Positions 951 through 56,334 of a stretch of 64,000 nucleotides of DNA are shown here, piece after piece. Location of the stretch: the NCBI GenBank assembly GCA_051294375.1, contig CM119266.1:5969431-6033430 (forward strand), read 5' to 3'. Below the pieces are notes generated by a model, which made no database searches, was not told where the DNA came from, and saw only the letters and a program-made list of their open reading frames with translations. Each line of letters opens with the position of its first letter. Position 1 is the first letter of the stretch. Source of the DNA: Paraspadella gotoi. Its lineage: Eukaryota > Animalia > Chaetognatha. A program made the position numbers and the translations under genes.

Positions 951-1200
951 CAACAGCCGAGTTGCCGGTGATGCCCATTGGGATGGGGCATCTCACTGTT
1001 GGCTTTTGGGGCTTCCGACCCTCAGTGATGCCTCCTGTCACTGGCGCGGTTACTCTAGGATGGTCTCGTTTTGCCAACACAGAGGGAAGTTGTTAGTTCT
1101 ATGGATGGAATGCAACGTTTAGAATGGTGCGTTCCCCCTCTGAGCCAATGGGATTGGCTGATCGAAGGTGGATGTGAGGCGGTGTGAATATACCACCACA
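951..1200 (-). mobile_element. About 250 bp structured dispersed repeat carrying a twister motif, copy 1
   Basis: Closely similar to 1949-2193 and 2421-2632. Contains several hairpins: GATGCCC..GGGCATC, GCCAAT-GGG-ATTGGC, GGCGGT..ACC(G/A)CC. Confidence 0.7.
997..1079 (-). ncRNA. Twister ribozyme motif, P5-type permutation (degenerate), copy 1
   Basis: Minus strand: UGUUGGC AAA ACGA G A CCA uccuagag UAA CCGC GC CAGUGA caggaggca UCACUG A GGG UCGG AAGC CCC AAAA GCCAACA. Predicted U^A cut between 1052 and 1051. Confidence 0.72.
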
Positions 1201-1399
1201 ACATATGGATAAAGGGACCAATACACAAACTCTTGCCACATTCACAGAAAAAGATGAAGCTACTACAAACCTACTAACATAAATAATAAATAACAGACGG
1301 AAAAAATGAAGCTGGAAACTATGACTGAAGATTAAAAAGACACAGACTTACAGACAACCATTTCTCAAATTCCCCTCATTCACTCCCAATTTACAAAAG

Positions 1400-1629
1400 G
1401 GCCGTGATCGTCTACGCCATCTTCTCATCTGGGGTGTGGCCCCGATGATCATACTCGGCCTCATTCTTGGGCTGTTACGGCGCCGCCTCATCGTCGGCGA
1501 GGTGCGGCGTCATGAGGACTTTTGGGCGCGCATATTTTTCTTCTTTTCCTTGACGCTGATTCTGTCGTGGACCCTGGTAGTCGCCTGTAGCGCTGCGGTC
1601 GTCGTGTGGAAGACGAGAGGAATGAGCAG
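1400..1629 (+). CDS. GPCR exon, TM4-TM5
   Basis: AG at 1398-1399. Reads GRDRLRHLLIWGVAPMIILGLILG...RIFFFFSLTLILSWTLVVACSAAVVVWKTRGMS, with two hydrophobic helices and the TM4 Trp. Donor at 1630, phase 2. Confidence 0.8.
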
Positions 1630-1948
1630 GTAGTGGTTTTAAAGATTAAGTTTTAAAGTTGGCTTTTAATTCAGGATAATAAATATGTGGGAAAAGGCAT
1701 TGATTTAATGTCTCAAAAAATTAAAAAATATCCAAATGAAACTACCGTTGTTGCAAATAAACCAATATTTACTCTTTCCCTCTAAATATCCAAAATACAC
1801 TTCTTCAAAACTTCCAAGAAGATCTAATCAAAAGATACAAAAAGTAATTAAATGTGCGTCAATATGCAAATGAGATTAAAGAATTCAGTCTGTAACATGC
1901 TAATACAAATCGAATGTTAATTATGCAATGAAATAGGTCACTTTATGG

Positions 1949-2193
1949 CAACAGCCGGGTTGCCTGTTATGCCCATTGAGATGGGGCATCTCAAAGTTGG
2001 CTTTGGGGCTTCCAACCCTCAGTGATGCCTCATGTCACTGGCGCAGTTAACCTAGAACGGTCTCGCTTTGCCAACACAGAGGGAAGTCGTTAGGACTGTG
2101 GATAGAACGCAATGCTTGGGATGGTGCGTTCCCCCTCTGAGCCAATGGGATTGGCTGATGATGGATGTGAGGCGGTGAGAATATACCGCCACA
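1949..2193 (-). mobile_element. Twister-bearing dispersed repeat, copy 2
   Basis: Collinear similarity to copy 1. Confidence 0.7.
1996..2075 (-). ncRNA. Twister ribozyme motif, P5-type, copy 2
   Basis: Minus strand: GUUGGC AAA GCGA G A CCG uucuaggu UAA CUGC GC CAGUGA..UCACUG A GGG UUGG AAGC CCC AAA GCCAAC. Predicted cut between 2049 and 2048. Confidence 0.75.
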
Positions 2194-2420
2194 GGAACCC
2201 CAGGTCAAGACATCACTCAGGTTCTCCAGGCCTGAGAGGTTTCTGACAAGACTGTTACCATAGAGGGAGAGAGAGAGAACGGGAGATGAGGGGGCATAGG
2301 CATTTGCCATAGAGTACCCCAGGGGCATAGGCGTTTGTTGTAGAGTACCTGAAGTTGGCAGGGCATAGGTGTTTGTTGTAGCGTACCCTGAGAAGGTAGT
2401 AGTGCTCACCACTTATGGAA

Positions 2421-2632
2421 ATAGCCGAGTTGCCTGTGATGCTCATTTGGATGGGGCATCTCACATTTGGCTTTGGGGGCTTCTGACCCTCAGTGACGAC
2501 TCCTGTCACTGGCGCGGTTACCCTAGGACGGTCTCGTTTTGCCAACACAGGGAAGTCGTAAGGACTGTGGGATGGTGCCTTCCCCCTCTGAGCCAATGGG
2601 ATTGGCTGAACGATGATGGATGTGGGGCGGTA
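2421..2632 (-). mobile_element. Twister-bearing dispersed repeat, copy 3 (internal deletion)
   Basis: Collinear similarity to copies 1 and 2; lacks the GAACGCAATGCTT segment. Confidence 0.7.
2466..2546 (-). ncRNA. Twister ribozyme motif, P5-type, copy 3
   Basis: Minus strand: UUGGC AAA ACGA G A CCG uccuaggg UAA CCGC GC CAGUGAC aggaguc GUCACUG A GGG UCAG AAGC CCC CAAA GCCAA. Predicted cut between 2520 and 2519. Confidence 0.7.
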
Positions 2633-2738: not shown

Positions 2739-3108
2739 TCGTAAATCCCGCGGCGAAGAAGTCCAACTTATGGTGGCGTCGGTGGCGGTGGAGTTCGTCG
2801 TCTGCCACGCCCCCCTCGTGGCCAAAATGTTGATGCACCTCTTCGTCGACGACCAACTGGAGGCGTTGGAGAAGATCTCCAACTTCTTTGAAGTCTTCAC
2901 CACTTCCGTCAATCTCTTCCTCTACCTTTTGGTCGGGAAGAGATTTCGAGGGGCCTTCGTCGAGATGATGGGGTGCGGACGGTGGAGCGGGGTGGAAGGG
3001 GGGCGGGGTGTTGATGGTGAAAAGTTGAGGAAGGTGTCGGGGAAGATGGAAAAGGCGGGGCTGGAGTTAGAGTTGAAATCTAAAGCGAATAAATCTTTGC
3101 CAGTTTAA
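2739..3108 (+). CDS. GPCR terminal exon, TM6-TM7-helix 8 (FMRFamide/sex-peptide-receptor-like or Srw-like lineage)
   Basis: CAG acceptor at 2736-2738, phase 2. Contains FVVCHAP (FxxCWxP-like), SVNLFLY (NPxxY-like), KRFR helix 8 and a downstream Cys. Stop TAA at 3106-3108. Confidence 0.85.
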
Positions 3109-10103: not shown

Positions 10104-10854
10104 CTGGGATGAGAAAGAGGGTTGAGTACAAAAATCTAATTTGCATATTGTAGTTAATTACTAAAAGGAGGATTATTTTGTAAAAAAAACGTATAGAAAA
10201 AACTAATCCGCCTAAACGTAATGATGTTTTAATTTCGCGATTTGATTTCTAGATTCACCGATAGATGGCGATAAAACCAAGTATAACAGAATTTGCAATG
10301 GGTATATAATATTGCAACACAAAAAACTTTTACGTTTCACAGTGCAAATTTAGAAATTGCAACTCCTTTGATAATACTTTTATAACGTTTATAACGTTTC
10401 TGAAACGTTACTAGTTGTTGCTGATATCGTTCCTGTCTTTTTACTTTGTAATTGATAATATCGTTATTGTTTTTAATAAAAAAAATATTAATTGTTATAT
10501 TGTCATTATGTTATTTTAGTCACGTTTAGTCATTACGTCATTACGTCATTTTACGTCATTTATGTCATTTTAGTCAAGTTTGGTCCTTTTCTGTCATTTT
10601 ATTTAATTTATGTCATTTAAAAAAAATATTTTTATATTGTTATTGTTATATTCATATATATTTATATCCATTTTAAACGTTAATGTTTTTTTGATTTTGT
10701 TAAATTTTATGAGTTTAATTTTTACATGTTTATCGTTTTCCAGTCTTTTACTCTGTCACTGTTTTACATTATATGTTAATACTGTTTTTGGTATTAATAA
10801 AATAAAAAAAAAATAAAAAAAAATTGCTTCGCTGCTGATCACGATTTTTAATCT

Positions 10855-11130
10855 CCACGCCACGACCCCAAATCTCTTTATCTCCATAATAAATCCCCTC
10901 ACCTCGATCTTAAATCTCCTCACCTCCGTAATAAATCTCCTCACCTTGCTCTTGAATCCCCTCACCTCGATCTTAAATCTCCTCACCTCGATAATAAATC
11001 CCATCACCTCGATCTTAAATCTCCTCACCTCCGTAATAAATCTCCTCACCTTGATCTAGAATCCCCTCACCTCGATCTTAAATCTCCTCACCTCCATAAT
11101 AAATCCCCTCACCTCGATCTTAAATCCCTT
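10855..11130 (-). repeat. 21-bp tandem repeat built from the exon 3' end plus splice donor
   Basis: About 13 units of (A/G)GATTTA(A/T)(G/T)A..GAG|GTGAGG, beginning inside the exon. Confidence 0.9.
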
Positions 11131-11280
11131 CAGCGCGTCCTGGTGATCAGAGCTGAAGTCCACGGTGATCGTCCGATGTCGATGTCGAACCGGAAGAGGG
11201 CGGAACCGGTCGCAGTGCGCGGAGCTCGGAGACGACGGAACCGTGGCCGCCACAAGGGTCAGCGTGATCGCTGCTGGGCT
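11113..11280 (-). CDS. CUB/mucin-like protein, C-terminal part of first CUB-like domain
   Basis: Reads SPAAITLTLVAATVPSSPSSAHCD...TITVDFSSDHQDALKGFKIE, matching the CUB C-terminal VxFxSD....GF motif. Phase 0 donor joins the exon at 10103. Confidence 0.72.
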
Positions 11281-28088: not shown

Positions 28089-28339
28089 AAGGGGGTTAAG
28101 AAATTTGTGGATTTGGTGAATTTGAGACGGAAATGAAACTGACGAAATAACAATAATAGTACACTATAATTATACTTATGATATTTTATGTGTCATTTCA
28201 ACCTGATTGCGTCATGCAGTGATCACGTGACGACAATAGTATGAAAATATATAATAATCGATTATTAATCAATTATTATCGATTCACTATTTTAAAATCA
28301 AGTAGACATACAGACGGCGGAACAGATGAACCACCGTTC

Positions 28340-31332
28340 GACCCACCGACCAACAGACCGACCGACCGATCAGCGACCTGACCGACCGATCCGACCGACA
28401 CCCGACCGACTCAGGCGAACCCCGACGACTCGAACGACTCACCGACGCGACCAGACCGACTCGACCGACCGACCGATCACCGACCGACCGAACCGACTCA
28501 GTGACCGACCGACCGACTCAGCGGACCGACCGAGCCACTCCGACTTCGACCGACCGACCTCGGTGACCGACCGACTCAGTCGACCGACCGACCGACTCAC
28601 GGACGACCGCCGACACCGACCGCTCGCCGACCAGTGCGACCGAACCCGACTCAGTGAGACCGACCGACCGACTCAGGACCGAACCGACCGACTCAGCGAC
28701 CGACCGACCGACTCAACCGACCGACCGACGCGACTCAGTGACCGACCGGACCGACTAGCACCGCCGACCGACTCAACGCGGACGTCCCGACCGAGCCGAG
28801 CCGACTCAGTGACCGACCCGAGCCGACTCCAAGGCGCCAACCGACCGCTCCGAGCTCCAGACGATGCACCGACCCGCCGACTCATGGACCGATCCGAAAT
28901 CCGAACTCAGCGAGCCGCGCTCAGCACCGCCCTCAGTGACCGACCGACCGACCTACGACCGTGCCGACCGACTTGTCAGCGACCGACCACGTCAGTGAAC
29001 CGACCGACGCGAAACTCAGCGACCGACGCGACCGACTCACACCGACCGATGCACGAACCGGACCCGACTCAGCGACGACCGCCGAGCTCAGCGACCGATC
29101 CGACCGACTTCACACCACGACCGACTCAGTGAGCGAGCACCTCAGTGACCGAACCGACCGACTCCGCACGATCGAGCGAACAGGACCGACGCGACCGACT
29201 CAGACCGACCGAGCCGATCCCGACACTCACCGACCGATCCGACCGACCGCCGACACGACCGAACCGAACTCAGCGACGCGATCCGAACGCGACTCAGTGA
29301 CGCGAGCCGGAACCGACCGAGCGTCAGCGACCGACCGACACGTGCCGCCGACGACCACCGACCACCGACGACCAGACCGACTGACCGACTCAGCGACCGA
29401 CCGACCGACTCAGCGACCGAACCGACCACCAGATCGACCGACGCGACTCGGACTCACGATCGCGACCTGTGAACCGACTCGACGACTCGACCGACCGACT
29501 CCACCGACTCACCGCCGACCGAACGACCGACTCACGACGACCGACGCGACTCAGTGACCGACCCGACCGACTCAGCGACCGACCGACCGACTCAGGACCG
29601 ACCGCACCTGCTCACCGACCAGACCGACCGACTCACTGTGACCGAGGCCGACCGATCTCAACGCGACCCGACCGACCGACTTCAGCTGACGACCGACCGA
29701 CTCACACCGTCCGACCGACTCACCGACCGACCCGACCGACTCAGCGACCGAGGACCGACTCAGCGACCGACCCCGACCGACTCAGTGACCGACGCGCCGA
29801 CTCAGCGACCGATCCACGACCGACTCACGACGACCGACCGACTCACCGACCGACCGACCGACGTCAGTGACCGACCGACCTAACTCAGCGACCGACCGAC
29901 CGACTCACGACCGACCGACTCGCGACCATCCGACCGACGACCGCCGACTCAGTGACGACCGACCGACCGAACTCAGGACCGACCGACCGACGCTGCAGCC
30001 GACGACCCGACCGACTCAAACCGAACCGACTCAGCGACCGACCGATCCGACTCAGTGACCGACCGACCGACTCACCGACCGACCGACCGACTCAGTGACA
30101 ACCGAACCGACCGACTCAGTACGGCGACCGACGCGACTCAGCGACCGAACCGACGACTCACCGACCGAACCGACCGACTCAGCCGACCGACCGACCACGA
30201 CACGTCAGCGACGACGACGCCCGACCGACTCAGTGACCGACCGACCGACTCAGTGACCGACCGACCGACTCAGCGACCGACCCGACCGACTCACCGACCG
30301 ACTCACCGACCGACCGATCGCGACCGACATCAGCGACCGACCGACCGACTCACCGACGACCGACGACCGAGCTCAGTGACCGACCGACCGACCAGTACCG
30401 ACTCAGTGACCGACCGTACCGACTCAGCGACCCGGACTCATGCCGACCGACTCGACCCGATCGCCAGCGACCGACCGAACCGATCACCACGCGACCGACC
30501 GACTCAGCGACCGACGCGACCGACTGCAGCGACCGGACCACCTCTCAGCCGACGCGACGACCGACTCAGGACCGACCGACCGACTCAGCGACCCGCCCCG
30601 CCCCGAACGACCGAAACCGACTCACCGACACGACCGACGACTCAGGACCGACGCGACCTGACTCAGCGAACCGACCGACCGGACCTCGACGACGACCGAC
30701 TCCGACCGATCACCACCGACCGACGTACGTCAGTGAGCCGACCGACCGACTCAGCGACCGACCCGACCGACTCAGACGCGACCGACAGCGACCGACCTCA
30801 CCGACCGACGCGACCGACTCAGTGACGCCGACTCCGACCACCGACCGACCGTCAGCGACCGACCGACCGACTCAGCGACCGACCGACCGGACTCAGGCCG
30901 ACGACCGACCGACCGACCGACTCAGCGCGACCGACCACGACCGACGACTCAGTGACGCGACCGACCGACTCAGGCCGACCCGACCGACCGGAGCTCAGCG
31001 ACCGGACCGACCGCGACCTACCCGAGACCGCGACCGACCGACTCAGTGACCGACCGACCGACCTGACCGACCGAGCCAGACCGACTCACGCGACCGACCG
31101 ACTCACCCGACCGACCGACCGACTCAGCGACCGACCGACCGACTCAACCGACCGACCGACCGACCAGCGACTGCAGACCGACCGACTCAGCCGACCGACC
31201 GACCGACTCAGCGACCGACCGACCGACTCAGTCCCGACCAGACCGACCGACTCAGTGACCGACCGACGCGACCTCAGCGACGCGACCGACCGACCACCGA
31301 CTGCGACCGACCGACTCAGCGACCGACCGACC
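28340..31332. repeat. (GACC)n-based satellite, about 20 bp unit GACCGACCGACCGACTCAG(C/T)
   Basis: About 3 kb array with many indels; mirrored at 43286-45095. Confidence 0.95.
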
Positions 31333-32574: not shown

Positions 32575-33441
32575 AGATTGTTCGAACAAAATTCGTTTAC
32601 TTCGCGAGAGAAGTCAAGAGAAAATTGGTTTCTAAATATTTTGAAACTTTTTCCGGGTCTTGTCGTCGTCATTGTCGTCGTCGCTGTCGTCGTTGTTGTC
32701 GTCGTCGCTGTCGTCGTTGTTGTCGTCGTCGTTGTCATTCTTATTATTATCTCCACCATAACTTGTTTAAACTTTACATCCGGAAAACTCGAATGATTTA
32801 TTGTCATCAAAAAGAAGAGAAAATCAAAAAACTATTTTTGAATCGAAAATAAATTAATGACAAAAAAAAACATTCTTTTGTTCTTTTGTTCTTTTGATGA
32901 TTTTCACGCACGTCCTGCTTTTCACAATAATCACTAGATCACAAAGTCGTGACTTTTTCGTGATTCTCAAAAGTTAACTTTTTCAACATTTTTTAATATA
33001 ACGAGTCCATTGATTATGAAAAAAAAATGTATAGTACTTTTTTTAGCAAAGACCCCTCACACTATCTCTCACTCTTTTCTTTATATCATTTAGCTAAACT
33101 CGTAATTAATCAATTTATTAATGAGAAAAATAAATGCCGACGCTAATCTCGCGCGAAAAACCCGAGCGATCGATTAATCTTATCTGTCGGTCCTCCATTT
33201 TTTATGGGGAGAAAATATCTGTAAAACGTCCGAAGTAATTCGCATACATCATCGTCGTCGTCGTCGTCGTTATCGTCGTTACGATCGTCGTCGCTGTCGT
33301 CGTAGTTATCGTCGTCGTTGTAATCAGTAATAGTTTATTTCAGTTGTTTTATTAATTTTTTTATATTATTTTTATTATTGCACGTTTCTTTTTTTTTTAA
33401 TCTTCACTGCGATATTTCCGTCGTCATCTTAGTCTTTATCG

Positions 33442-33473
<32 letters not shown>

Positions 33474-35052
33474 ATCGTCGTCTTTTTTTATGAAACTTAC
33501 TTTTTTAAAAAAACTGAGCAAATGACGTCACAGACGATTTTGAAATAAAACGAAATCGACGTCTGAAAACTAAAAAAAATTGAAAAAGGAAAAAACAAAA
33601 AAAACCCGCTGAAGACAAATGATTTTATCGAGAAAGAAAACTTTACTAATTTCTCCGTCGTTATAATTTTCTAATTAACTTTTTTCTTCAAATTTGAGTT
33701 GTTTTAGCATCGAGTTCAGACATTAATTAATTGAAACAAAATTGTCAACTCGGTCGCGAAAAAGGTGAATCAAAATCGAGAGCGAATTGTATTCAAAGCA
33801 AAATTGTAACAATTTTTTTCTACATTAAGTTTCTTCGCATTTTTGTCCGTCGTGATGCTGAGCGGAGATTGTTGTTCACAAGTCCCGTTGATGTTAAAGA
33901 AGTTGCTGCAGAAGTTTGGTGAAAAAAACCCATCGGTGTCGCTGTTGTAGACATGAAGTTTCATAACAGAGAGAGTTAAATGAACAAGAATAAGTAAATA
34001 ATGTTTCTTGAGACTATGAAGATTAGAGATTTGACGTCTCTGATATTCCTCCTCCGGTGGAAATCACCAAGCTTCCTCTTCCTTATGATTTCTGTTTGAG
34101 ACACAAGATAAAAAAACCTCAATGTTATGAAATTTAAAGAAAATCACATCTTTTTAAAGGATTGTTTTGTCCTTTTGCAAAATTAGTTTTTCTTTTTTCC
34201 TTTATAATTTTACGATAAGTTGGCTGAAGATAACTAAATTAGTGTGGGCAGATATGGCAATGTTTTGCTCAAACTTGTTCACCCTCTAACTTGGCACATG
34301 GAAAATGTATTTACTTTAATCAACAAGCTCACAAGCGCGATTTCACACGACGAGTTTCTTTACAAAATTTTATGATGTTTTAGCAGTTTTTTTGACTGCA
34401 ATTATAACAGGGGAACATACATAATGAAAATGTAGGAGAGAGAAGCAGAATATCCCACGCATCCCTTATGGAATTGTCTACTTTCTGATAGCGGTAATAG
34501 TAGTAAGAATGGCAGCTTTCCCAATGTGCGAGGTTGCAAAAGTATGCGCCGCCTACTCTGGACACAGAAGATCATGGTTTTAAATATATTGTATTGTCAT
34601 GACAATTTTTTACATGGGTACCAATTTTAATTATTCTTTTATTTACCCGTAAAAAGGAACTTTTTAATTTCGTTCCAAAAGACCTGGGCCTCCCAGTATT
34701 TAGTCATTACTTTAGACATGGATGAAGAAATCATATCCGCTACTTGTATTTTTGCACAAATGACGTCGCTTTTTTTTTAAATTAATTTTGTTGTAGTCCG
34801 TGTGATACAAAATAAAATTGATGCGAAATTAACTTATAAATATACTTTATTAGTTGAATTTGTGATTCTAATTTGGTTCTTTCTTCCATATTCATTTTAA
34901 TACTTAAAAAGAGAATACAAAAATTTAGATTTTTGAATAGTAAAATTTATAATCATTTTCTTTAACCGTTTTTCCTATTTATCTACAATACATAGCATAT
35001 TCAAATTTTAATTAATACTTGTATTAATTTTTTAAAAACATACTTAAAAAAA

Positions 35053-35503
35053 TCAATATTTTTTAAGAAAATCGGCAAAAACTTTCAAATCTTCGCTCAA
35101 ATAAATAGAAGTGTCGAAGGCGCCGTCGGTAGAAGCAGCATTGGCGTTCGCTGCGGCGTCCCCTGCGTCCGCTGCGGCGTTCCCTGCGTCTTCTGCGGCA
35201 GTGGCGGCGTCCCCGGAGTCCGCAGCAGCAGCGGCGGCGTCCGAGGCTTGGTTCACTTCGTCGGGAGAAGCGGCATCTGTAGTCAGAGTCTTAGAGGACA
35301 TATCTTCGTGGGTTTCGCTGTGGCCTTCGCTGTGGATGTCTTTGTGGATGTCTTTGTGGTCGTCCTTGTTGGCGTCGTCGTCATCGTCGTTGTGGGTGTC
35401 GCTGTGGGTGTCGCTGTGGGCGTGGTCGCGATTGACGTCGTCGTTTTGATCGACGTCGACGGAAATTTCCTTTCGCTTCATGGCCACCAAATCGTCGATG
35501 CGT
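35053..35503 (-). CDS. Terminal exon of an uncharacterised gene (Asp/His-rich and Ala-rich low-complexity protein)
   Basis: TTTAG acceptor. Reads RIDDLVAMKRKEISVDVDQNDD...HSDTHSDTH...DAGNAAADAG...SIYLSEDLKVFADFLKKY*. Upstream exons are visible only in the mirrored arm (38709-38821, 39048-39193). Confidence 0.55.
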
Positions 35504-36199
35504 CTAAATGTGTCAATCAATCAATCAATCTATCAATCAAACCAATCAATAAAACCAATAAATATATCAATTGATCAATAGATCAATCAAATTAAACAAT
35601 CAATCATTCAATTGTTTAAACGCTACATTGAACTTTCAGAATAGTCAAATATGACCAGTCAAAAAAAATTAATTCATTAATAAATAAGTCACTGACTNNN
35701 NNNNNNNNNNNNNNNNNNNNNNNNNNNNNNNNNNNNNNNNNNNNNNNNNNNNNNNNNNNNNNNNNNNNNNNNNNNNNNNNNNNNNNNNNNNNNNNNNNNN
35801 NNNNNNNNNNNNNNNNNNNNNNNNNNNNNNNNNNNNNNNNNNNNNNNNNNNNNNNNNNNNNNNNNNNNNNNNNNNNNNNNNNNNNNNNNNNNNNNNNNNN
35901 NNNNNNNNNNNNNNNNNNNNNNNNNNNNNNNNNNNNNNNNNNNNNNNNNNNNNNNNNNNNNCGTCTCTACCTCCACGCGGTGCTAGCGGGAACATCCTTT
36001 CCGATGGCGAAAGAGACGGGAGGCTCAAGCAAACAAAGAGAAGGAAAAGCCGAAAGGCGGAATGCCGATTTATTTTCTTGAGTATCGGAGTGGACCAGGC
36101 CCAGCCGACCTGGTCACCTCCGCCCTCTTCCTCCCTTCCCAAATCCTTGCCCCTCCCTTCTCTCCCTCTTTCCTCTATCTTTTCCCACCCTTTTTAAAA

Positions 36200-36407
36200 A
36201 CATTTCAGGTGCAGCCTCTCAATGCATTGGTGTCTGCCACCGAAGACAGCTCTGATAGCGACATCGTCCCTCGTTGGACGAATGCCTTTCAATCGAAGAC
36301 GAGGAGGACACCTGGCGGGAGGAAGCGACGTCGATCTTCTTGAAGTCGATTTTTGTCGATTCGACGAAGAAGTCGAAGTTTGATTCGGATCCAAGTCGTT
36401 GATGCAT
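36200..36407 (-). CDS. CCDC102-like gene, probable last coding exon (frame uncertain)
   Basis: TCCAG acceptor at 36408-36412 and a GC-rich island. Reading frame depends on donor choice and on a possible 1-nt error. Confidence 0.45.
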
Positions 36408-36766
36408 CTGGATTTAAAGATAGACAGATTTAAAGATAAAAAAAAATAGGTAAGTTAAGGTGATGATAATGGATAAAAAGTGAAAAGATTTAAAGATAGA
36501 CAGAAAAAATAGGAAGGGAAAAGTGAGTATTCTGGAAAGAAAGATAGAAAGATTTAAAGACAGAAAAAATAGGTAAGTAAAAGTGATTATTCTGGAAAGA
36601 GATGTGGAGAGATTTAAAGATAGACCGAGAGAAAGAAAAGGTCAGTGATGCATCAGGATATAAAGATAGAAAAACAGAAAGATAAAAAGTAAGTTAAAGT
36701 GAAGATTCTTGAAAGAAAGAAAGATAAAAAAGATTTCAAATAAAACAGAAATAATTAGGGTATTAC

Positions 36767-36897
36767 CTGCACCTGCCCTGATTGGCTCTCGCCCTTGCTG
36801 TCACGTGATCGAGCTGCACCTTCATCGCCGACACCTGATCTTCCAAATCTTCGTTGCTTCGCTGAAGACGACGACATTTGTTGTCCTGAGCGTCGGC
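36767..36897 (-). CDS. CCDC102: CCDC102-like coiled-coil exon
   Basis: ADAQDNKCRRLQRSNEDLEDQVSAMKVQLDHVTAR resembles the recalled CCDC102A segment ..ARKLQRSLDEQ..ENLQVQLEHLQSR. The 3' boundary is uncertain. Confidence 0.75.
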
Positions 36898-36992
36898 CTG
36901 GTTGCCAAGCAACGTTTTAGACTTGTTACATTGGAAATACAATTTACGATTAAGTCGACTCAACACTAAATCTAAATTCGTTCATCTCATCC

Positions 36993-37175
36993 TGTGCACT
37001 CTCAGTTGGAACCCGGTGGGTAATTGAGTAAAGCCGTGAGCTCATGATTAGTAGGTACTGAGATCGATACGCGCTGCATAAGGATGGCCGTCAACCACCT
37101 TGGGAGAATGATAAACTCTCAAGCATTGTGCCAAGCGCAGCACCCGTTCCACCGCTGGCAAGGGTTGTCAAAGAA
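36993..37175 (+). mobile_element. Possible tRNA-derived SINE-like insertion in a CCDC102-like intron
   Basis: GC-richer island with tRNA-like segments (GGTGGGTAATTGAGTAAAGC; GCTCATGA; AGGTACTGAGATCGATAC, resembling the initiator-Met T-loop GATCGAAAC). Confidence 0.3.
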
Positions 37176-38959
37176 GAAATCTTCATCCATAATTCTTTAA
37201 ACTTAAGACGTGATTGGCTCACCGGTCACTTAAAACTCGATTATGATTGGTTCTCACCTCATCTTGAACGTGAGATTTGAGAATCGAAGAATTAAAGAAG
37301 GAAATGGATGACGTTCAAGATGAGGTGAGAACCAATCATAATCGAGTTTTAAAGTGACCGGTGAGCCAATCACGTCTTAAGTTTAAAGAATTATGGATGA
37401 AGATTTCTTCTTTGACAACCCTTGCCAGCGGTGAACGGGTGCTGCGCTTGCACAATGCTTGAGAGTTTATTCATTCTCCAAGGTGGTTGACGGCATCCTT
37501 ATGCAGCGCGTATCGATCTCAGTACCTACTTTAATCATGAGCTCACGGCTTTACTCAATTACCCACCGGGTTCCAAAACTGAGAGTGCACAGGATGAGAT
37601 GAACGAATTTAGATTTAGTGTTGAGTCGAACTTAATCGTAATTGTATTTCCAATGTAACAAGTCTAAAAACGTTGCTTGGCAACCAGGCCGACGCTCAAG
37701 GACAACAATGTCGTCGTCTTCAGCGAGCAACGAAGATTTGGAAGATCAGGTGTCGGCGATGAAGGTGCAGCTCGATCACGTGACAGCAAGGGCGAGAGCC
37801 AATCAGGGCAGGGTGCAGGTAATACCCTAATTATTTCTGTTTTATTTGAATCTTTTTTATCTTTCTTTCTTTCAAGAATCTTCACTTTAACTTACTTTTT
37901 ATCTTTCTGTTTTTCTATCTTTATATCCTGATGCATCACTGACTTCTTCTCTTTCTCTCGGTCTATCTTTAAATCTCTCCACATCTCTTTCCAGGAATAA
38001 ATCACTTTTACTTACCTATTTTTTCTGTCTTTAAATCTTTCTATCTTTCTTTCCAGAATACTCACTTTTCCCTTCCTATTTTTTCTGTCTATCTTTAATC
38101 TTTCACTTTTTATCCATTATCATCACCTTAACTTACCTATTTTTTTTTATCTTTAAATCTGTCTATTCTTTAAATCCAGATGCATCAACGACTTGGATCC
38201 GAATCAAAACTTCGACTTCTTCGTCGAATCGACAAAAATCGAACTTCGAAGAAGATCGACGGTCGCTTCACCCCCGCCAGGTGTCCTCCTCGTCTTCGAT
38301 TGAAAGGCATTCGTCCAAACGAGAGGGACATGTCGCTATCAGAGCTGTCTTCGGTGGCAGACACCAATGCATTGAGAGGCTGCAGTCTGAAAGTGTTTAA
38401 AGGGAGTAAGTTAGGAAGGGAAGGGAGGGGGAGGATTTGGAAGGAGGAAGAGGGGAGGGGGGTGGGGAAAGATAGAGGAAGAGAGGGAGAAGGGGAAGGG
38501 GGCGGGTGAGGAGAGGGGAGGTGGTGGAAATAAGGAGAAGGGGAAGGGGAAGAGTGCGAGATTGGAAGGAGAGGAAGAGGGCGGAGTGACCAGGTCGGCT
38601 GGGCCTGGTCCACTCCGATACTCAAGAAAATAAATCGGCATTCCGCCTTTCGGCTTTTCCTTCTCTTTGTGTTGCTTGAGCCTCCCGTCTCTTTCGCCAT
38701 CGGAAAGGATGTTCCCGCTAGAAACCGCCCGTGGAGGTAGAGACGTACTTCAAACATGTGTCCTCGTCGTCGTCGTATTCGTCGTCGTCGTTGTCGTCGT
38801 CTCCTTTTTGCTTTATTTACCGTAACAAAATAAATCTGAAAATGATGCGTCGTTCCAAATAACTGATGGAGCAAATATTGTTTGACATTTTCCACATATG
38901 GAATACAAATAGAAAAATACTATCGGTAGCGTATTTCAATATTTCTCTCTCTCTGCTCT

Positions 38960-38999
<40 letters not shown>

Positions 39000-41549
39000 C
39001 TCTCTCTCTCTCTTCTCATCTCTCTCTCTCTCTCTCTCTTCCTTCAGGCCTTATCGACATCTCGCCGAACGTTTGTTCGGAACACATCGTCGTCATTGGT
39101 CGTCTCGTCGTCGTCGTCGTCTCCCAACGAATCTCCTCGTGACGTTCGAGCAAAAAGTCGCCAACATGGAGAGAGAGGAGTTTTTCAAGTTCAGTGACTG
39201 ACTGATTGATTTATTGATTGGTAAAAGTTTGAAAAATTGAAGTTCGAGTCAGTGACTTATTTATTAATGAATTAATTTTTTTTTGACAGGTCAATATTTG
39301 ACTATTTTGAAAGTTCAATGTAGCGTTATAACAAATTGAATGATTGATTGTTTAATTTGATTGATCTTATTGATCAATTGATATATTATTGGTTTAATTG
39401 ATATAAATGGTTGGTTTTATTGATTGGTTTGTTGATAGATTGATTGATTGAATTGACACATTTAGAACGCATCGACCGATTTGGTGGCCATAGAAGCGAA
39501 AGGAAAATTTCCGTCGACCGCGTCGATCAAACGACGACGTCAATCGCGACCACGCCCGCAGACAGACACACCCACAGCGACGCCCACAAACGACGATGAC
39601 GACGACGCCAACAAGGACGACCACAAAAGACATCCACAAAGACATCAACAGCGAAGGCCACAGCGTAACCCACGAAGATATGTCTCTCTAAGAACTCTGA
39701 CTACAGTATGGCCGCTTCTTCCCGACGGAAGTGAAACAAGCCTCGGACGCGGCCGCTGCTGCTGCGGACTCCGGGGACGCCGCCACTGCCGCCAGAAGAC
39801 GAGGGGAACGCCGCAGCGGACGCAGGGGACGCCGCAGCGAACGCCAATGCTGCTTCTACCGACGGCGCCTTCGACACTTCTATTTATTTTGAGCGAAGAT
39901 TTGAAAGTTTTTGCCGATTTTCTTAAAAAATATTGATTTTTTTTAAGTATGTTTTTAAAAAATTAATACAAGTATTAATTAAAATATTGAATATTGCTAT
40001 GTATTGTAGATAAATAGGAAAAACGGTTTAAAGAAATGATTATAAATTTTACTATTCAAAAATCTAAAATTTTTGTATTCTCTTTTTAAGTATTTAAAAT
40101 GAATATGGAAGAAAGAACCAAAATTAGAATCACAAATTCAACTAATAAAGTATAATTTATAAGTTAATTTCGCATCAATCTTTATTTGTTATCACACGGA
40201 CTACAACAAAATTAATTAAAAAAAAAAGCGACGTCATTTGTGGCAAAAATACAAGTAGCGGATATGATTTCTTCATCCATGTCTAAAGTAATGACTAAAT
40301 ACTGGGAGGCCCAGTCTTTTTGGAACGAAATTAAAAAGTTCCTTTTTACGGGTAAATAAAAGAATAATTAAAATTGGTACCCATGTAAAAAATTGTCATG
40401 ACAATACAATATATTTAAAACCATGATCTTCTGTGTCCAGAGTAGGCGGCGCATACTTTTGCAACCTCGCACAAGTTGGGAAAGCTGCCATTCTTACTAC
40501 TATTACCGCTATCAGAAAGTAGACAATTCCCATAAGGGATGCGTGGGATATTCTGCTTCTCTCTTCCTACATTTTCATTATGTATGTTCCCCTGTTATAA
40601 TTGCAGTCAAAAAAAACTGCTAAAACATCATAAAATTTTTGTAAAGAAACTCGTCGTGTGAAATCGCGGCTTGTGAGCTTGTTGATTAAAGTAAATACAT
40701 TTTCCATGTGCCAAGTTAGAGGGTGAACAAGTTTGAGCAAAACATTGCCATATCTGCCCACACTAATTTAGTTATCTTCAGCCACTTATACGTAAATTTA
40801 TAAAGAAAAAAGAAAAATTAATTTTTGCAAAAGGACCAAACAATACTTTAAAAAGATGTGATTTTCTTTTAAATTTCATAAACATTGAGGTTTTTTTATT
40901 TTGTGTCTCAAACAGAAATCATAAGGAAGAGGAAAGACTTGGTGATTTCCACCCGGAGGAGGAATATCAGAGACGTCAAAATCTCTAAATCTTCATAGTC
41001 CTCAAGAAACATTATTTTACTTATTCTTGTTTCATTTAACTCTCTCTGTTATGAAACTTCATGTTCTACAACAGCAACACCGATGGGTTTTTTTCACCAA
41101 ACTTCTGCAGCAACTTCTTTAACATCAACGGGACTTGTGAACAACAATCTCCGCTCAGCATCACGACGGACAAAAATGCGAAGAAACTTAATGTAGAAAA
41201 AATTGTTACAATTTTGCTCTTGAATACAATTCGCTCTCGATTTTGATTCACCATTTTCGCGACCGAGTTGACAATTTTGTTTCAATTAATTTAATGTCTG
41301 ACTCGATGCTAAAACAACCAAATTTGAAAAAAAAAGTTAATTAGAAAATTATAACGACTGGAGAAATTAGTAAAGTTTTCTTTCTCGATAAAATCATTTG
41401 TCTTCAGCGGGTTTTTTTTTGTTTTTTCCTTTTTCTCAAATTTTTTTTAGTTTTCAGACGTCGATTTTCGTTTTATTTCAAAATCGTCTGTGGACGTCAT
41501 TTGCTCAGTTTTTTTAAAAAAAGTAAGTTTCATAAAAAAAGACGACGAT

Positions 41550-41581
<32 letters not shown>

Positions 41582-42472
41582 TAAAGACTAAGATGACGAC
41601 GGAAATATCGCAGTGAGATTAAAAAAAAGAAAACGTGCAATAATAAAAAATAATATAAAAAAATTAATAAAACAACTGAAATAACTATTACTGATTACAA
41701 CGACGACGATAACTACGACGACAGCGACGACGATCGTAACGACGATAACGACGACGACGACGACGATGATGTTTTGCGAATTACTTCGGACGTTTTTACA
41801 GATATTTTCTCCCCATAAAATGGAGGACCGACAGATAAGATTAATCGATCGCTCGGGTTTTTTCGCGCGAGATATTAGCGTCGGGCATTTATTTTTCTCA
41901 TTAATAAATTGATTAATTACGAGTTTAGCTAAAATGATATAAAAGAAAAGAGTGAGAGATAGTGTGAGGGGGTCTTTGCTACAAAAAAAGTACTATACAT
42001 TTTTTTTTTCATAATCAATGGACTCGTTATATTAAAAAAATGTTGTGAAAAAGTTAACTTTTGAGAATCACGAAAAAGTCACGACTTTGTATCTAGTGAT
42101 AGTATTGTGAAAAGCAGACGTGCGTTGAAAATCATCAAAAGAACAAACAGAACAAAAGAATGTTTTTTTTTTGTCATAAATTTATTTTCGAATTCAAAAA
42201 TATTTTTTTGATTTTCTCTTCTTTTTGATGACAATAAATCATTCGAGTTTTCTCGGATGTAAAGTTAAACAAGTTATGGTGGAGGATAATAATAAGAGAT
42301 GACACGACGACGACAACAACGACGACAGCGACGACGACAACAACGACGACAGCGACGACGACAATGACGACGACAAGACCCGGAAAAAAGTTCTAAAATA
42401 TTTAGAAACCAATTTATCTCTTGACTTCTTCTCGCCCGAAGTAAACGAATTTTTGTTCGACAATCTCTCTCT

Positions 42473-42527
<55 letters not shown>

Positions 42528-45244
42528 CTCTCCTTTTCCTCTCTCTCTTTCTCTCTCTCTCTTCTCGCGAAACTTACTCAACTCGCTAACTCATTTTCTA
42601 AGCGTAAATCTATCTCGAAAATTCCAGGATTAACCCACATCAACCTCTCTCTCATCTCTCTCTCCTCTCTCGTCTCTCTCTCATCCTCTCTCCTCTATCT
42701 CTCTCTTCTCTTCTACTCTCCTCTCTCTCTCTCAACCCGGAAGCGATAGCAACCTTCGCTCTTCGCTCGTTGTCTCTCTTAAATTTTCTCTTTACCGCCT
42801 TCGATTTGCTCATTCACTCATTCACCGAAATTCACGGACTCGCGTTTTCGCCTTCACAACTCACCACGTTTGCGCCTTCACCACCCCCTTTCGGCACTAT
42901 TCACCCCTCGCTCATCCACCCCTTTTCCACTTAATCACCCCTCGCTTCATCACCCCCTTCGCACTAATCCACCCCTCGGCTCATCACTCCCTTTCGCCAC
43001 TAATCACCCCTCGCCTCATCAACTCCCTCGCTTCATCACTCCCTCGCTCATCAGTCCTCAGCAAATCACACCTTAAAGGCAAAATCACTCCAACGGGGTA
43101 TAGTATCACCGACAGCAAAATTTCGTTGAAATATTAGTTTTCACAACGAAATGTGTTGACAAAATCAGAAAAACAAACTCAGAAGACTCCAATATATTTA
43201 ATTACCTAAAAAAACTTCATCTTTAAGGGATTTCAGTTTTTAGGTTGCCGCCGAGAGTCGTCGGAACGATTCCTTTAAGACACTTTGGGGGTCGGTCGGT
43301 CGCCTGCGTCGGTCGGGTCGGTCGGGAGTCGGCTTCGGTCGGTCGCTAAGTCGGTTCGTCGGTCGGTCTGTCGTCGGCTGAGTCGTGTCGGTCGGTCGGT
43401 GAGTCGGGTCGGTCGCGTACTGAGTCGGTCCGGTTCGGTCGGTGAGTCCGGTCTGGTCGGTCGGTGGGATCGGTCGTGTCGGTCGCTGCAGTTCGGTCGG
43501 GCTCGGTCACTGAGTCCGGTCGGTCGGTGAGTCGGTCGTCGGTCGGTGAGTCGGTACGGTCGGTCGGTGAGTCGGTCGGTCGGTTTGCTGAGTCGGCCGG
43601 TCGGTTCACTGAGTCTTGGTCGGTCGGCGGTGTGAGTCGGTCGGTCCGGTCGGTGAGTCGTCGGTCGGTCGGTGAGTCGGTCGGTCAGGTCGATGAGTTC
43701 GGTCGGTCGGTCGGCTGAGTCGGTCGGTCGGCGTCGTCGTTGAGATCGGTCGGTCGGTCACTGAGTCGGTCGGTCGGTCGGTGAGTCGGTCGCGGTCGGT
43801 CGCTGAGTCGGTCGGTCGGTCGCTGAGTCGGTCGGTGTCGTCGGTCACTGAGTCGGTCGGCTCGGTCGCTGAGTCGGATTCGGTTCGGTCGGCGGTCGGT
43901 TCGGTGGAGTCGGTCCGGTCGGTCGCTGAGTCGGTTCGGTCGGTCGCTGAGTCGGTCGGTCGGTCACTGAGTGGCTCGGTTCGGATCGCTGAGTCGGTCG
44001 GTCGGTCGCTGAGATCGGTCAGGTCGGTCGTCTGGTCGGTCCGGCACCTGCTCGGTCGAGGTCGCTTGAGCTCGGTCGGTTTCCGGCCATCGGTCACTGA
44101 GTCGCGTTCGGATCGCGTCGCTGTAGTTCGGTTCGGTCGTGTCGGCTCGCTCGGTCGGTGAGTCGGTCGGTCGGTCGCTGAGTCGGTCGGTCGTCGCTGA
44201 GTCGAGTCGGTACGGCGTCACTGAGTCGCTCGGTCGGTCGTGAGTTTGAGTCGGTCGGTCGCGTCGCTGAGCTCGGTCGGTCGGTCGCTGAGTCGGTCGT
44301 CCGGATTCGGCATCGGTCGGTGTGAGTCGGTCGGTCGGTCGTGAGTTTCGGGACATGTCGGTCGGTCACTGATCGGTTCGGTCGGTCGCCTGACAAGATC
44401 GGTCGGCAATCGGATCAGCCTAGAGTCAGCGCTCGGTCGGTCACTGAGTCGGTCGGTCGGTCGCTGAAGTCGGTCGGCGGTCGCTGACGGTCGGATCTTC
44501 GGATTCGTGTCGCTGGCAGTCGGTCGGGTCGGGGTGCCATCGGTCCTCGCGTCGCTCGTGCAGCGGTCGGTTGGGCGCTGGAGTCGGCTCGGGTCGGTCA
44601 CTGAGTCGGTCCATCGGCCTCGGATCGGTGAGAATCGGTCGGTCGCGTCGGTGAGTCGGTCCGGTCGGGTCGCTGAGTCGGTCCGGTCAGGTCACTGAGC
44701 GCCTTCGGTCGGTCGGTGAGTCGGTCGGTCGGTCGCTGAGTCGGCTCGGTTCGGTCGCTGAGTCGGTCGGTCGGTCTCACTGAGTCGGCGTCGGTCGGTC
44801 ACTGAGTCGGTCGGCGGTCGGTGAGCTCGGTCGGGTCGGTCCGGTGAGGTCGGTCGGTCGGTCGCTGAGTCGGTCGGTCGGTCACCTGAGGTCGCGTCGG
44901 TCGGTCGGTGAGTGGCTCGGTCTGGTCCGCTGAGTCGGTCGGTCGGTCACTGAGTCGGTCGGTCGGTCGGTGAGTCGGTCGGTCGGTGTTGAGTGCGGTT
45001 CGGTCGGTCGGTGAGTCGGTTTTCGGTCCGGGTTCGCTGAGTCGGCGGTCGGTCACTGAGATCGGTCGGTCGGTCTGTTGGTTCGGTGGGTCGAACGGCT
45101 AGGTTCATCTGTTCGCCGTCCTGTATGTCCTACTTGATTATTAAAATAGTGAATCCGATAATAATGATTTAATAATCGATTATTATATATTTCATACTAT
45201 TGTTCGTCACGTGATTCCANNNNNNNNNNNNNNNNNNNNNNNNN

Positions 45245-45279: not shown

Positions 45280-45587
45280 CTGTAGAAAAAAAAACAAAAA
45301 ACAAAGATAAATCACAAAAAGATGGAAAAAAACTATTATGCCAAAAACGTTGTAATTGTTAAAAATCTTTTAAAATAGTCCTCGTCGTTACTCATAAATC
45401 TCCTCAGATACCCGACTTATTTTCCATTTCACCTAAGATCTCCAATTATCCCCTCAAAATCCCTTGATCCCCTCACATGTACGCATGCGCGAGTTTGCTC
45501 TTTCTCTCGCTGAGAATCATCTCAAGCAGATCCCCCCTCAAATGATCCCCTCTATGATCCCCTCAAAATCCCTAATGATCCCCTCAC

Positions 45588-45715
45588 CTGTGCGCATGAG
45601 CAAGCTCGCTCGTTCTCTCGCTGAGAATCTTCTTGAGTTTGAGATGCGATGATCGGGATTCCATCAACTCTTTCGCCCGCGATCGAAGATCGGACTCCAG
45701 CGCGGATCGATCGCT
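45588..45715 (-). CDS. CCDC102: CCDC102-like exon
   Basis: Reads SDRSALESDLRSRAKELMESRSSHLKLKKILSERTSELAHAH(R). AG/GT flanked, phase 0/2. Confidence 0.8.
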
Positions 45716-45788
45716 CTGTTCAAAAATATAAAACTTTAATCTCATTTGCATATTGAAGCTTGTATTTTTTTTTTTTTTTTAATTTTAC

Positions 45789-45953
45789 CAGAGCCGAGGC
45801 GGCGTCGGCGGTCTTCTTCGCTTCCAATTGACTCTGCAATTCCTCGATTTGTTGCTTCAATCTTTTGTTTTCTCTCTCCATCACGAGTCTGTGAGTTTCC
45901 AAACGCTCGCAGCGACTCCACTCTTCAGCGTTTTCCTTCTCCAACAACTCGAG
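45789..45953 (-). CDS. CCDC102: CCDC102-like exon
   Basis: LELLEKENAEEWSRCERLETHRLVMERENKRLKQQIEEL matches the recalled family motif ENA.EW..RERLETEKL.LERENKKL. Confidence 0.85.
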
Positions 45954-46271
45954 CTTGAGAGGGACAAAAGAACATCGGAAGAGAGTTGGGGTTTGTTCAA
46001 TATATATTATAGTCTATCGCTAAATAAATTTAAAAAGAAATAGCCAAATATATAAAGGTATAAATAAGCAGTTTAATAGATAAATGAGAAACAGATAAGT
46101 AAATAAATATATAAAAAAGAAAAAAGCTGATAAATAAACAAACAAATACATCAAATGAATAAGTACAAACCATTAGGTAAAATATTGAATAGTTAAATGA
46201 ACAAGTAACTAATGAATAAATAAATAATAAATAAATTAAATAATAGATTAATCCCCCCCTTCCACACCGAC

Positions 46272-46445
46272 CTGTTTCCTCATTTCCGCCATCTTCCCTT
46301 CCACCTCCTCTCGTGCCTCCATCTCCTCCTCCAGATTGAGCGAGGTTCGCCCCAACGCTTCGCTGTGCTCCAACTTCAACTCCCCCAACTCCTCGTCGAC
46401 GGTCGCCTTCGCCGCCGCCAACTCGGAGGCGCGGAGGCGAGAGGC
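46272..46445 (-). CDS. CCDC102: CCDC102-like exon
   Basis: Reads ASRLRASELAAAKATVDEELGELKLEHSEALGRTSLNLEEEMEAREEVEGKMAEMRKQ; 174 nt, phase 0/0. Confidence 0.8.
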
Positions 46446-46848
46446 CTGGATGTATTAACATGTGTAAACGATGATGATTATTAACAGTATGTACTGTACG
46501 AATCTATAATTACAGTATATTGACGGATTTATTGATATCTAAATTAATTAGTAAACTTCAGAAAAAAGTTTTTGTTTTTAAATTTTTTGTAAATGGAAAT
46601 AAAATTTAATTTCTTTAATTTTTAAGTTCTAATAAAGAAACGATGAATTGAAAAAAACTTTTTAATCATTTTTCACGGCCTCAAAATTCTTTCCTGTTTT
46701 GATTGATTAATAAATATATTTTTTCTTTAATTTGTTTTATTTTCTATTACTACATTTTACTATTGCATACGTTTATTCCTTGAATTATCACTCACTCGAT
46801 TCACTCTTTACTCCTCCCCCCTCTCTCACCCCCCCCCCCCCTCGCTAG

Positions 46849-46939
46849 ACTCAAAAAGGCCAGCCGCGCCCTCTCACTCGAACGCGAACGATCCGCCCGC
46901 TTCCTCCACAGACTCGACGCTGTCGCCTCCGAACTCCAA
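46849..46939 (+). CDS. CCDC102: CCDC102-like exon placed in inverted orientation by the assembly
   Basis: Reads (R)LKKASRALSLERERSARFLHRLDAVASELQ. Its phase 2 start matches the donor at 49119, and its phase 0 end matches the exon at 46445. Confidence 0.65.
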
Positions 46940-49119
46940 GTTGAGGCTGGACGCGGGTCTTCGTCAATCATTACTTCTCTATTGTTTAATGATTTAATGT
47001 TATTTCGATAATAATCGCATTTTAAGGCTGTTTTAAAGACGAATATAAATCGGAAATTACAAATTAAAGTACTATCCTTGAGTAAATCTATGAAATTTAA
47101 AAATGCCTTTTTTTTAACAATTTTTAAATTCAAAAGTCAAAGAAAAATTATTATTCAAACTTTTGAGGCCGTGAAAAATGATTAAAAAGTTTTTTTCAAT
47201 TTATCCTTTCTTTATTAGAACTTAAAAATTAAAGAAATTAAATTTGAATTCATTTACAAAAAATTTTAAAAACAAAAAACTTTTTCTGAAAGTTTACTAA
47301 TTAATTTAGATATCATAAATCCGTCATATATACTGTAATTATAATTCGTACAGTACATACTGTTAATAATCATCATGCGTTACCAACATGTTAATACTCC
47401 AGGCCTCTCGCCTCCGCGCCTCCGAGTTGGCGGCGGCGAAGGCGACCGTCGACGAGGAGTTGGGGGAGTTGAAGTTGGAGGCACAGCGAAGCGTTGGGGC
47501 GAACCTCGCTCAATCTGGAGGAGGAGATGGAGGCCGAGAGGAGGTGGAAGGGAAGATGGCGGAAATGAGAAACAGGTCGGTGTGGAAGGGGGGATTAATC
47601 TATTATTTAATTATTTATTATTTATTTATTCATTAGTTACTTGTTCATTTAACTATTCAATATTTTACCTAATGGTTTGTACTTATTTCATTTGATGTAT
47701 TTGTTTGTTTATTTATCAGCTTTTTTCTTTTTATTATTTATTTACTTATCTGTTTTCTCATTTATCTATTAAACTGCTTATTTATACCTTTATATATCTT
47801 GGCTATTTCTTTTTAAATTTATTTAGCGATAGACTATAATATATATTGAACAAACCCCAACTTCTCTTCCGATGTTCTTTTGTCCCTCTCAAGCTCGAGT
47901 TGTTGGAGAAGGAAAACGCTGAGAGTGGAGTCGCTGGCGAGCGTTTGGAAAACTCACAGACTCCGTGATGGAGGAGAAGAAAACAAAAGATTGAAGCAAC
48001 AAATCGAGGAATTGCAGAGTCAATTGGAAGCGAAGAGAAGACCGCCGACGCCGCCTCGGCTCTGGTAAAATTAAAAAAAAAAAAAAATACAAGCTTCAAT
48101 ATGCAAATGAGATTAAAGTTTTATATTTTTGAACAGAGCGATCGATCCGCGGCTGGAGTCCGATCTTCGATCTCGGACAAAAGAGTTGATGGAATCCCGA
48201 TCATCGCATCTCAAACTCAAGAAGATTCTCAGCGAGAGAAACGAGCGAGCTAGCTCATGCGCACAGGTGAGGGGATCATTAGGGATTTTGAGGGGATCAT
48301 AGAGGGGATCATTTGAGGGGGGGATCTGCTTAAGATGATTCTCAGCGAGAGAAAGAGCAAACTCGCGCATGCGTACATGTGAAGGGAATCAAGGGATTTT
48401 GAGGGATAATTGGAGATCTTTAGGTGAAATGGAAAATAAGTCGGGTATCTGAGGAGATTTATGAGTACGACGAGGACTATTTTAAAGATTTTTAACAATT
48501 ACAACGTTTTTGGCATAATAGTTTTTTTTCCATGCTCTTTTGTGATTATCTTTGTTTTTTGTTTTTTTTTTCTACAGGAGAATCGAATCCTACGAAACAG
48601 GAGATAAAGAAACTGAGATTTGGAATCGAAGAATTAAAGAAGGAATTGGNNNNNNNNNNNNNNNNNNNNNNNNNTTTTTTTTTTCTTTTATAAAACAGAC
48701 ACGAAATGTACGAATATAATTAAACTAATAAAGGGATTAAATAATAAGCTGGGCGACCCCTCAAGGGTCATTGAAGTTAATTAAACGAATTGATCAAAGT
48801 GAAAAAATTTTTTCAAGAAAATGTCAAAAAGTACAGTACAGTAATTAAAAATTTTACTTTCAGAATGGAGGTGCAGTGTAGTTGAAACTTTTTCTTTTTT
48901 TTTCTTTTTTTATTTCGACGAAAATTGATACGAAATTGGTACAACCACGTGATCTTCCTTTCGATGCTGCATCGTACTTCAATAGAGAAAGTAAAATTCC
49001 AAATCAAGAAACAAATTAATTTTCCCCTTAAAATTTAAGACGGAAATTTGTAATATTTGAAGATACAATATAATGTATTTTAAGTAAAAAAAAACTAATG
49101 TCACAAATAAATTTCTAAC

Positions 49120-56027: not shown

Positions 56028-56334
56028 ACGTTAAAAATGCATGTAATTTGCCTATAGTTTGTTGCTCATTTGTTTAGGAATTCCTAAAACTATAAGGAAA
56101 AAAAAGACGGAATTTTGATGAAGTGCATGTTATAAATACATGGGCTAAAAAAGTTTTTTAGTCTTATCATGCCATGTCATATCATGTCATATCATGTGAT
56201 CAAAGAGAAATACACGGAAAATAAAGTCATTGCGGCGCAACATATTGGAATCACCGTTCTTATTTTCATGTTCTTTTGTTTCATTTTCACAGCCTCGTTC
56301 TAAACTTTCGATATATAGACTCTCACTTCCACCG

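Follow-up and report, generated by a model that had tools for sequence, protein, structure and literature searches.

The window analysed here, a 64-kb stretch of microsatellite-rich eukaryotic DNA with 2,940 N bases, contains three copies of a short non-coding repeat whose minus strand resembles a self-cleaving twister ribozyme. This raises two questions: is the twister fold real, and what kind of element brought it there? Twisters are already known from animals and from retroelements (PMC7761336, PMC6765202, PMC10085705, PMC4918200). A literature search of partial coverage found no type-P5 twister in an animal repeat, no twister in a Penelope-like element and no natural dimeric twister.

Three repeat copies in the introns of a GPCR gene

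By blastn, we delimited three repeat copies of 229–256 bp and found no further ones in the 64-kb window, in line with the first-pass annotation, which had listed three copies of about 250 bp. Copy 1 lies at 945–1200 (256 bp), copy 2 at 1943–2193 (251 bp) and copy 3 at 2413–2641 (229 bp, shorter at its 5′ end and missing 18 nt internally), all on the minus strand. Their pairwise identities are 88.8, 84.7 and 84.8%, transitions account for half to two thirds of the differences, and copies 1, 2 and 3 carry 11, 11 and 14 private changes, respectively; the divergence is thus real and of similar age among the copies, not read noise. The flanking sequences of the three copies are mutually unrelated, and the copy ends agree to within about 15 nt. 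No tRNA head was found in the repeat unit. Each copy contains the same perfect 7-bp inverted repeat, AGCCAAT-CCC-ATTGGCT, at 1143–1159, at 2139–2155 and in the matching stretch of copy 3. It would form an RNA hairpin or, at the DNA level, two opposed CCAAT boxes, CCAAT being the consensus of that box, and could be part of an internal promoter.

Copy 1 was inserted into an 87-bp tandem repeat on the plus strand (587–942, 4.2 copies), which resumes past it at 1201–1248. Copies 2 and 3 are separated by a 219-bp spacer (2194–2412) of about 50% G+C, which contains an (AG)n run and a 31-bp tandem repeat. The spacer has no relative elsewhere in the window and no Pfam match, no primer-binding site or polypurine tract was seen in it, and it may or may not be part of the element.

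The host gene encodes a rhodopsin-type GPCR on the plus strand, and the introns are A+T-rich and the exons G+C-rich. Its last exon (2739–3108, TM6–TM7 and tail) has weak Pfam matches to 7TM_GPCR_Srw (E 0.009) and 7tm_1 (E 0.034), and its Atlas look-alikes are of the 7tm_1/Srw kind (0.95); a protein homolog search with this exon found none. Upstream, on the same strand, lie exons for the TM3 region (480–594) and the TM4–TM5 region (1400–1629). All exon borders are inferred, with in-phase GT/AG sites that place copy 1 in one intron and copies 2 and 3 in the next. The earlier placement of the copies in GPCR introns is therefore supported by the weak Pfam matches, the Atlas look-alikes and the in-phase splice sites. 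All three copies are antisense to the gene (one-sided p 0.125), which says little on whether such an orientation spares the host pre-mRNA. The second GPCR exon, by its inferred border, ends where the 87-bp tandem repeat starts. The first unit of that repeat contains the in-phase donor (GT at 595), and a donor-like GTAAGA recurs in later ones.

The twister-like fold and its recognition

The type-P5 twister (Rfam RF02684, clan CL00120) reportedly belongs to the class of Roth et al. 2014. In all three copies the minus strand reads, in order, P5-AAA-P2′-GA-T1′-P1-UAA-P2-GC-P3-A-P4-L4-P4′-AAA-P5′. The twister-like cores occupy 998–1078 in copy 1, 1996–2075 in copy 2, the best preserved, and 2466–2546 in copy 3, all on the minus strand; with the scissile U at 1052, 2049 and 2520, the predicted cuts fall at 1052^1051, 2049^2048 and 2520^2519, respectively. 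Invariant among the three copies are N^AA at the cut, the general-base G and the A that follows it, the T2 GC and U...A-GC in L4. The strand order P2′-GA-T1′-P1-UAA-P2-GC-P4-L4-P4′ and the invariant U^AA, general-base G, T2 and L4 letters are shared with RF02684. In contrast to the 7–8-bp P1 hairpin of the known family, P1 here has 2 bp around a palindromic loop; the repeat also differs in that P3 is present, P5 is closed by 5–7 bp, T1 is CGG/CCG and the first P2 pair is a C-A mismatch.

We scanned both strands of the window with a family-agnostic descriptor made of class-wide twister letters and pairings only. It matched at three sites, which are exactly the three copies. Run on 131.7 Mb of dinucleotide-shuffled units, the descriptor matched 622 times with up to three mismatches allowed; once 5 pairs were required in both P3 and P5, two matches remained at the level of copies 1 and 3, and none reached the level of copy 2. 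These P3 and P5 thresholds were chosen after the candidate had been seen, and the three copies count as one observation. In the alignment, 85% of 81 cells were paired, compared with 20–43% in slid controls. T2 paired in 6 out of 6 cells and P4 in 9 out of 9, neither varying among the copies. T1 paired in 7 out of 9 cells and was complete only in copy 2, through a U-G wobble, and P2 paired in 7 out of 12, with mismatches of a kind tolerated in the rice twister mutant matrix. We conclude that the fold is very probably real, and its layout predicts site-specific self-cleavage at U^A. The type-P5 layout proposed in the first-pass annotation was thus recovered in all three copies by descriptor and shuffles; the full core string written there occurs in no single copy, each having one T1 change.

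Two other readings of these sequences were rejected. A type-P1 twister in copy 3 pairs less well in T1 and is not common to the other copies, and a plus-strand hammerhead suggested by CUGAUGA in copy 2 is lost in copies 1 and 3 and has no GAAA.

Covariance models did not recover the fold. The Rfam scan gave no match in the window at the gathering score; copy 3 had a twister-P1 match of 23.7 bits (E 0.037), below that score, and copy 2 on its own gave no twister match, just unrelated weak ones. As a control, the canonical P5 pattern picked up 57 viral loci, and of 20 viral control loci run through Rfam, 12 scored above the cut-off with Twister-P5 and 4 matched twister-P1. The Rfam Twister-P5 model has a long P1 hairpin, lacks P3 and holds T1 to fixed letters, which explains why it misses the copies and does not remove the missing score. 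Our own model, built from 16 viral P5 twisters and run on positions 1–30,000 of the window, has the same long P1 and canonical T1; its best hit, over copy 2, had an E value of 3.1. Neither model thus supplied the significant score that the first-pass annotation had proposed to look for. Its covariation check came out likewise on the three window copies, with 0 out of 27 pairs changed on both sides, a comparison of low power. Both results are to be expected of a fold that lies outside the models and of three dead copies. If the fold is what it appears to be, there would be a class of animal twisters that current Rfam models cannot see and that the largest activity survey, confined to type P1 (PMC11662667), would also have missed. 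Two phage contigs (L048 and L060) each carry two type-P1 twister-like units back to back, and the junction between the units also reads as type P5.

The missing model score and covariation are what a chance likeness in a hairpin-rich repeat would give. We nevertheless regard chance as scarcely credible, given that no match reached the level of copy 2 in the shuffles, that both pseudoknots pair in register and that an unrelated viral twister, described below, has the T1 swap too.

The T1 swap, decay and the P1 palindrome

T1 in the copies is CGG/CCG, swapped relative to the canonical pairing. A reverse search of viral contigs for type-P1 twisters with a CGG/CCG T1 returned 17 loci, one of which (L083:297–365, minus strand) pairs fully in P1, P2 and P4; it scores 48.3 bits with twister-P1, under the Rfam cut-off of 67.2. 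In the rice twister, the double mutants C26G+G48C and C27G+G47C have relative activities of 0.74 and 0.86, respectively, compared with 0.12 for G48C and 0.17 for G47C alone (PMC5113685). The viral locus and the rice double mutants together indicate that the swap is natural and that each half of it is functional, the four-fold change itself lying outside the rice matrix. This supports the earlier view of T1 as compensated.

We estimated the state of each copy by transfer from the rice matrix, which has another sequence context and covers pairs of changes only. All three copies share a C-A mismatch at the first P2 pair, equivalent to G44A, which keeps a relative activity of 0.97; the first-pass annotation had listed this mismatch and missed a second P2 C-A mismatch in copies 1 and 3, which makes the combination U12C+G44A (0.68) (PMC5113685). 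The private T1 changes are all CG to TG or CA. In copy 1, T1 is broken on the L1 side (G49A, 0.26, or 0.07 with G44A); in copy 2 its pairing is kept through the U-G wobble (C25U, 0.93, or 0.32 with G44A); and in copy 3 it is broken on the L4 side, with A opposite C (C26A+G48C, 0.10). A survey of natural twisters found flaws in P1, P2 and P4 tolerated and pseudoknot mismatches harmful (PMC11662667). By this analogy the shared P2 mismatch would be harmless and copies 1 and 3 would carry damaging T1 breaks, so that copy 2 may keep some activity and copies 1 and 3 probably little. The earlier suggestion that the copies are decayed therefore holds for the private T1 changes and not for the shared C-A mismatch, which had been part of its grounds. 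We regard the copies in the window as dead or dying passengers.

Extra conservation of the core was absent, with 12 variable columns out of 80 in the core and 13 out of 84 and 11 out of 53 in the flanks. This bears on the idea that the host retains the ribozymes for cutting antisense transcripts or for regulating the GPCR gene, which would suit three copies that are all intronic and antisense. However, a core that decays as fast as its flanks, with its own T1 change in each copy, makes such a function very improbable.

In the copies, a segment of 8 nt separates T1′ from the cut; among viral P5-pattern matches with a paired P2, it measures 15–26 nt in 30 out of 32. In copy 3 this segment, UCCUAGGG (2521–2528, minus strand), is an intact self-complementary 8-mer, with −11.0 kcal/mol as a self-duplex and +2.7 kcal/mol as a hairpin, and 1.2% of random 8-mers match its self-duplex strength. 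As a hairpin, P1 reaches 2 bp at most (+2.7 to +7.2 kcal/mol across copies) and is unstable, whereas as an intermolecular duplex P1 of copy 3 forms 6–8 bp. When copy 3 was cofolded, P1 paired between molecules, and the monomer favoured a hairpin masking T1′. Copies 1 (1053–1060, with the palindrome broken) and 2 (2050–2057) have a weaker duplex, of about −4.5 kcal/mol, and the CUAG centre is invariant in all three. The short P1 hairpin of the first-pass annotation is therefore not sustained, and the 8-nt palindrome had gone unnoticed there. We treat the palindrome as suggestive, because a 2-bp P1 would have a palindromic 4-nt loop by chance in about 1 in 16 cases. P1 flaws of twisters are tolerated in vitro (PMC11662667). 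In animal hammerheads, a helix III of 1–2 bp with a palindromic loop is found in ribozymes that are active as dimers (PMC4209133). With P1 reduced to a palindrome, the twister in the repeat likely cuts only as a pair or dimer.

The kind of element

Our preferred reading, to which we give a probability of roughly 0.55, is by analogy with known systems: the copies would be decayed solo ends (pseudo-LTRs or retrozyme-like monomers) of a Penelope-type retroelement, with a ribozyme predicted to cut as a dimer only. Through the P1 palindrome, cleavage would be confined to tandem transcripts, where two units come together, and a unit-length (circular) monomer would stay intact. The template would be rebuilt from both sides of the cut, as a tandem, a terminal repeat or a circle, and inserted copies would then decay neutrally. 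A bolder version, in which the unit is a Penelope-derived, retrozyme-like mobile RNA whose dimer-gated twister, a second ribozyme class, converges on the dimer switch of hammerheads, seems to us possible and rather doubtful. If true, the preferred reading would offer a candidate answer to how RNA is processed in Penelope-like elements without hammerheads, and an instance of a natural twister controlled by dimer formation.

Several known systems resemble the repeat. Like animal non-LTR retrozymes (PMC7229834; bioRxiv 10.64898/2026.07.22.740005) and the hammerhead-bearing pseudo-LTRs in Penelope-like elements (PMC4209133), it is a 200–300-bp non-coding animal repeat with a ribozyme inside, and it shares with dimer-dependent hammerheads a helix of 1–2 bp with a palindromic loop and an occurrence as solitary, decayed copies (PMC4209133). 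Most animal hammerhead copies occur singly, as remnants of truncated Penelope-like elements (PMC4209133), and monomeric retrozyme copies are described as dispersed and related to pLTRs (bioRxiv 10.64898/2026.07.22.740005; PMC7229834). It differs from these systems in that its ribozyme is a twister, no hammerhead, such as the type I hammerhead of animal non-LTR retrozymes, being found by Rfam or by inspection, and from the non-LTR retrozymes in that the window holds no head-to-tail tandem array and only a 6-nt hint of read-through. The Naiad group of Penelope-like elements is likewise from invertebrates, with pLTRs, 5′ truncation and no canonical hammerheads; no Naiad protein or 30–40-bp tail was found in the window, however (PMC8557442).

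Evidence on the unit's movement comes from its ends. About 150 nt are kept before the predicted cut and 107 nt after it (148 and 107 in copy 1), with near-constant ends. Since both sides of the cut are kept in every copy, either the unit had a tandem, circular or terminal-repeat template, or it moved at the DNA level. Copy 3 is followed at its 3′ end by six bases (2407–2412, minus strand) that match the 5′ start of the unit, a start missing from the 5′ end of that copy (post hoc chance of about 0.01); they may come from reading through a circular or tandem template. The window copies include no tandem array and no inverted truncated copy, and unrelated sequence separates them; copy 3, the spacer and copy 2 could be a partial tandem. 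On the ribozyme strand the copies are 50–61% paired, below the 70% quoted for retrozymes (PMC4918200), and only copy 2 folds clearly more stably than shuffles (z −3.1 linear, −3.9 circular).

The retained upstream sequence also bears on whether the unit is the 5′ end of an RTE-type LINE with a processing twister of its own. There is precedent in the twisters at the 5′ end of Perere-3 in Schistosoma (T-variants; PMC8501958) and of RTE elements (PMC7761336), which, like the repeat, put a twister inside an animal retroelement. The Perere-3 twister, however, is of type P1, as are those of the RTE elements, has a canonical T1 and sits at the extreme 5′ end with a target duplication beside the cut (PMC8501958). 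Its copies begin at the cut, whereas here the cut is internal, with 120–150 nt upstream of it in every copy. A linear self-cut RNA cannot template both sides of its cut, which argues against the Perere-3 arrangement, and no ORF, APE-RT or other, follows the copies among the 150 most complex of the window's 434 open frames. We therefore judge an RTE origin most unlikely.

The unit might instead be the LTR of a plant-type LTR retrozyme or TRIM, with copy 3, the spacer and copy 2 as one element and copy 1 as a solo LTR. Plant retrozymes also carry the ribozyme mid-repeat between fixed ends, and solo copies of them occur (PMC4918200). The spacer is G+C-rich in an A+T-rich intron, copy 1 can be read with TGTT...AACA ends, and the star-like divergence would be compatible with an old pair. 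Yet the plant elements have a type III hammerhead, a primer-binding site, a polypurine tract and 4-bp duplications (PMC4918200), none of which was seen here: inspection in either orientation showed no polypurine tract or recognisable primer site, and no duplication surrounds the pair. Copies 2 and 3 are moreover no closer to each other than copies 1 and 2, copy 2 has a candidate duplication of its own (the 6-bp AGGTCA at 1935–1940 and 2202–2207, not significant), and the stability of the 471-nt circle from cut to cut is unremarkable (z −1.52). These points leave the LTR reading improbable.

A further alternative takes the twister as real and as a passenger in a unit that spread at the DNA level, by local duplication, by gene conversion or in a MITE-like way, without ever using the ribozyme to move. 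The whole set of copies falls within 1,697 bp, with no copy outside it in the window, a pattern equally compatible with local duplication; two copies adjoin other repeats, the core shows no selection among the copies, and the unit ends have a weak 5/6 inverted match. On the other hand, the unrelated flanks imply a unit that moved with discrete ends, and neither clear terminal inverted repeats nor a typical target-site duplication was seen, the 6-bp flanking repeats at copies 1 and 2 being matched by 55 out of 300 random position pairs. Since this alternative also leaves the origin of the fold unexplained, we hold it to be unlikely.

For the Penelope-type reading, we looked for a partner element and for relatives. 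No RT or GIY-YIG domain was found in the 150 most complex of the 434 open frames of the window. The earlier proposal of a ribozyme-carrying retroelement thus stays plausible, without an autonomous partner, primer-binding site, polypurine tract, array or firm target-site duplication found in the window, the flanks having been inspected by eye. A pattern scan of viral and metagenome contigs yielded 4 matches in the former and 5 in the latter, with no Rfam match for any of them, and a 23-nt flank motif was absent from the viral contigs. In prokaryotes, pattern scanning gave 120 matches; 20 of these rows had at least 3 pairs in P2 and none more than 3 bp in P1, and we took them as chance. No relative emerged from the viral, metagenome or prokaryote contigs.

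Other features of the window lie away from the repeat. Mirror-image blocks at 32600–42400, 45400–48400 and 28300–31300 with 43300–45100 have arms that are 86–100% complementary, with noisy indels; their appearance suggests fold-back artefacts from long reads or from amplification, not true inverted duplications. Two related, intronless EamA-like transporter frames lie at 52200–53000, which is frameshifted, and at 56200–57318, which has weak Pfam EamA/CRT-like matches. At 10811–11146, on the plus strand, a 21-bp tandem repeat yields an open frame of KSPHLxx heptads.
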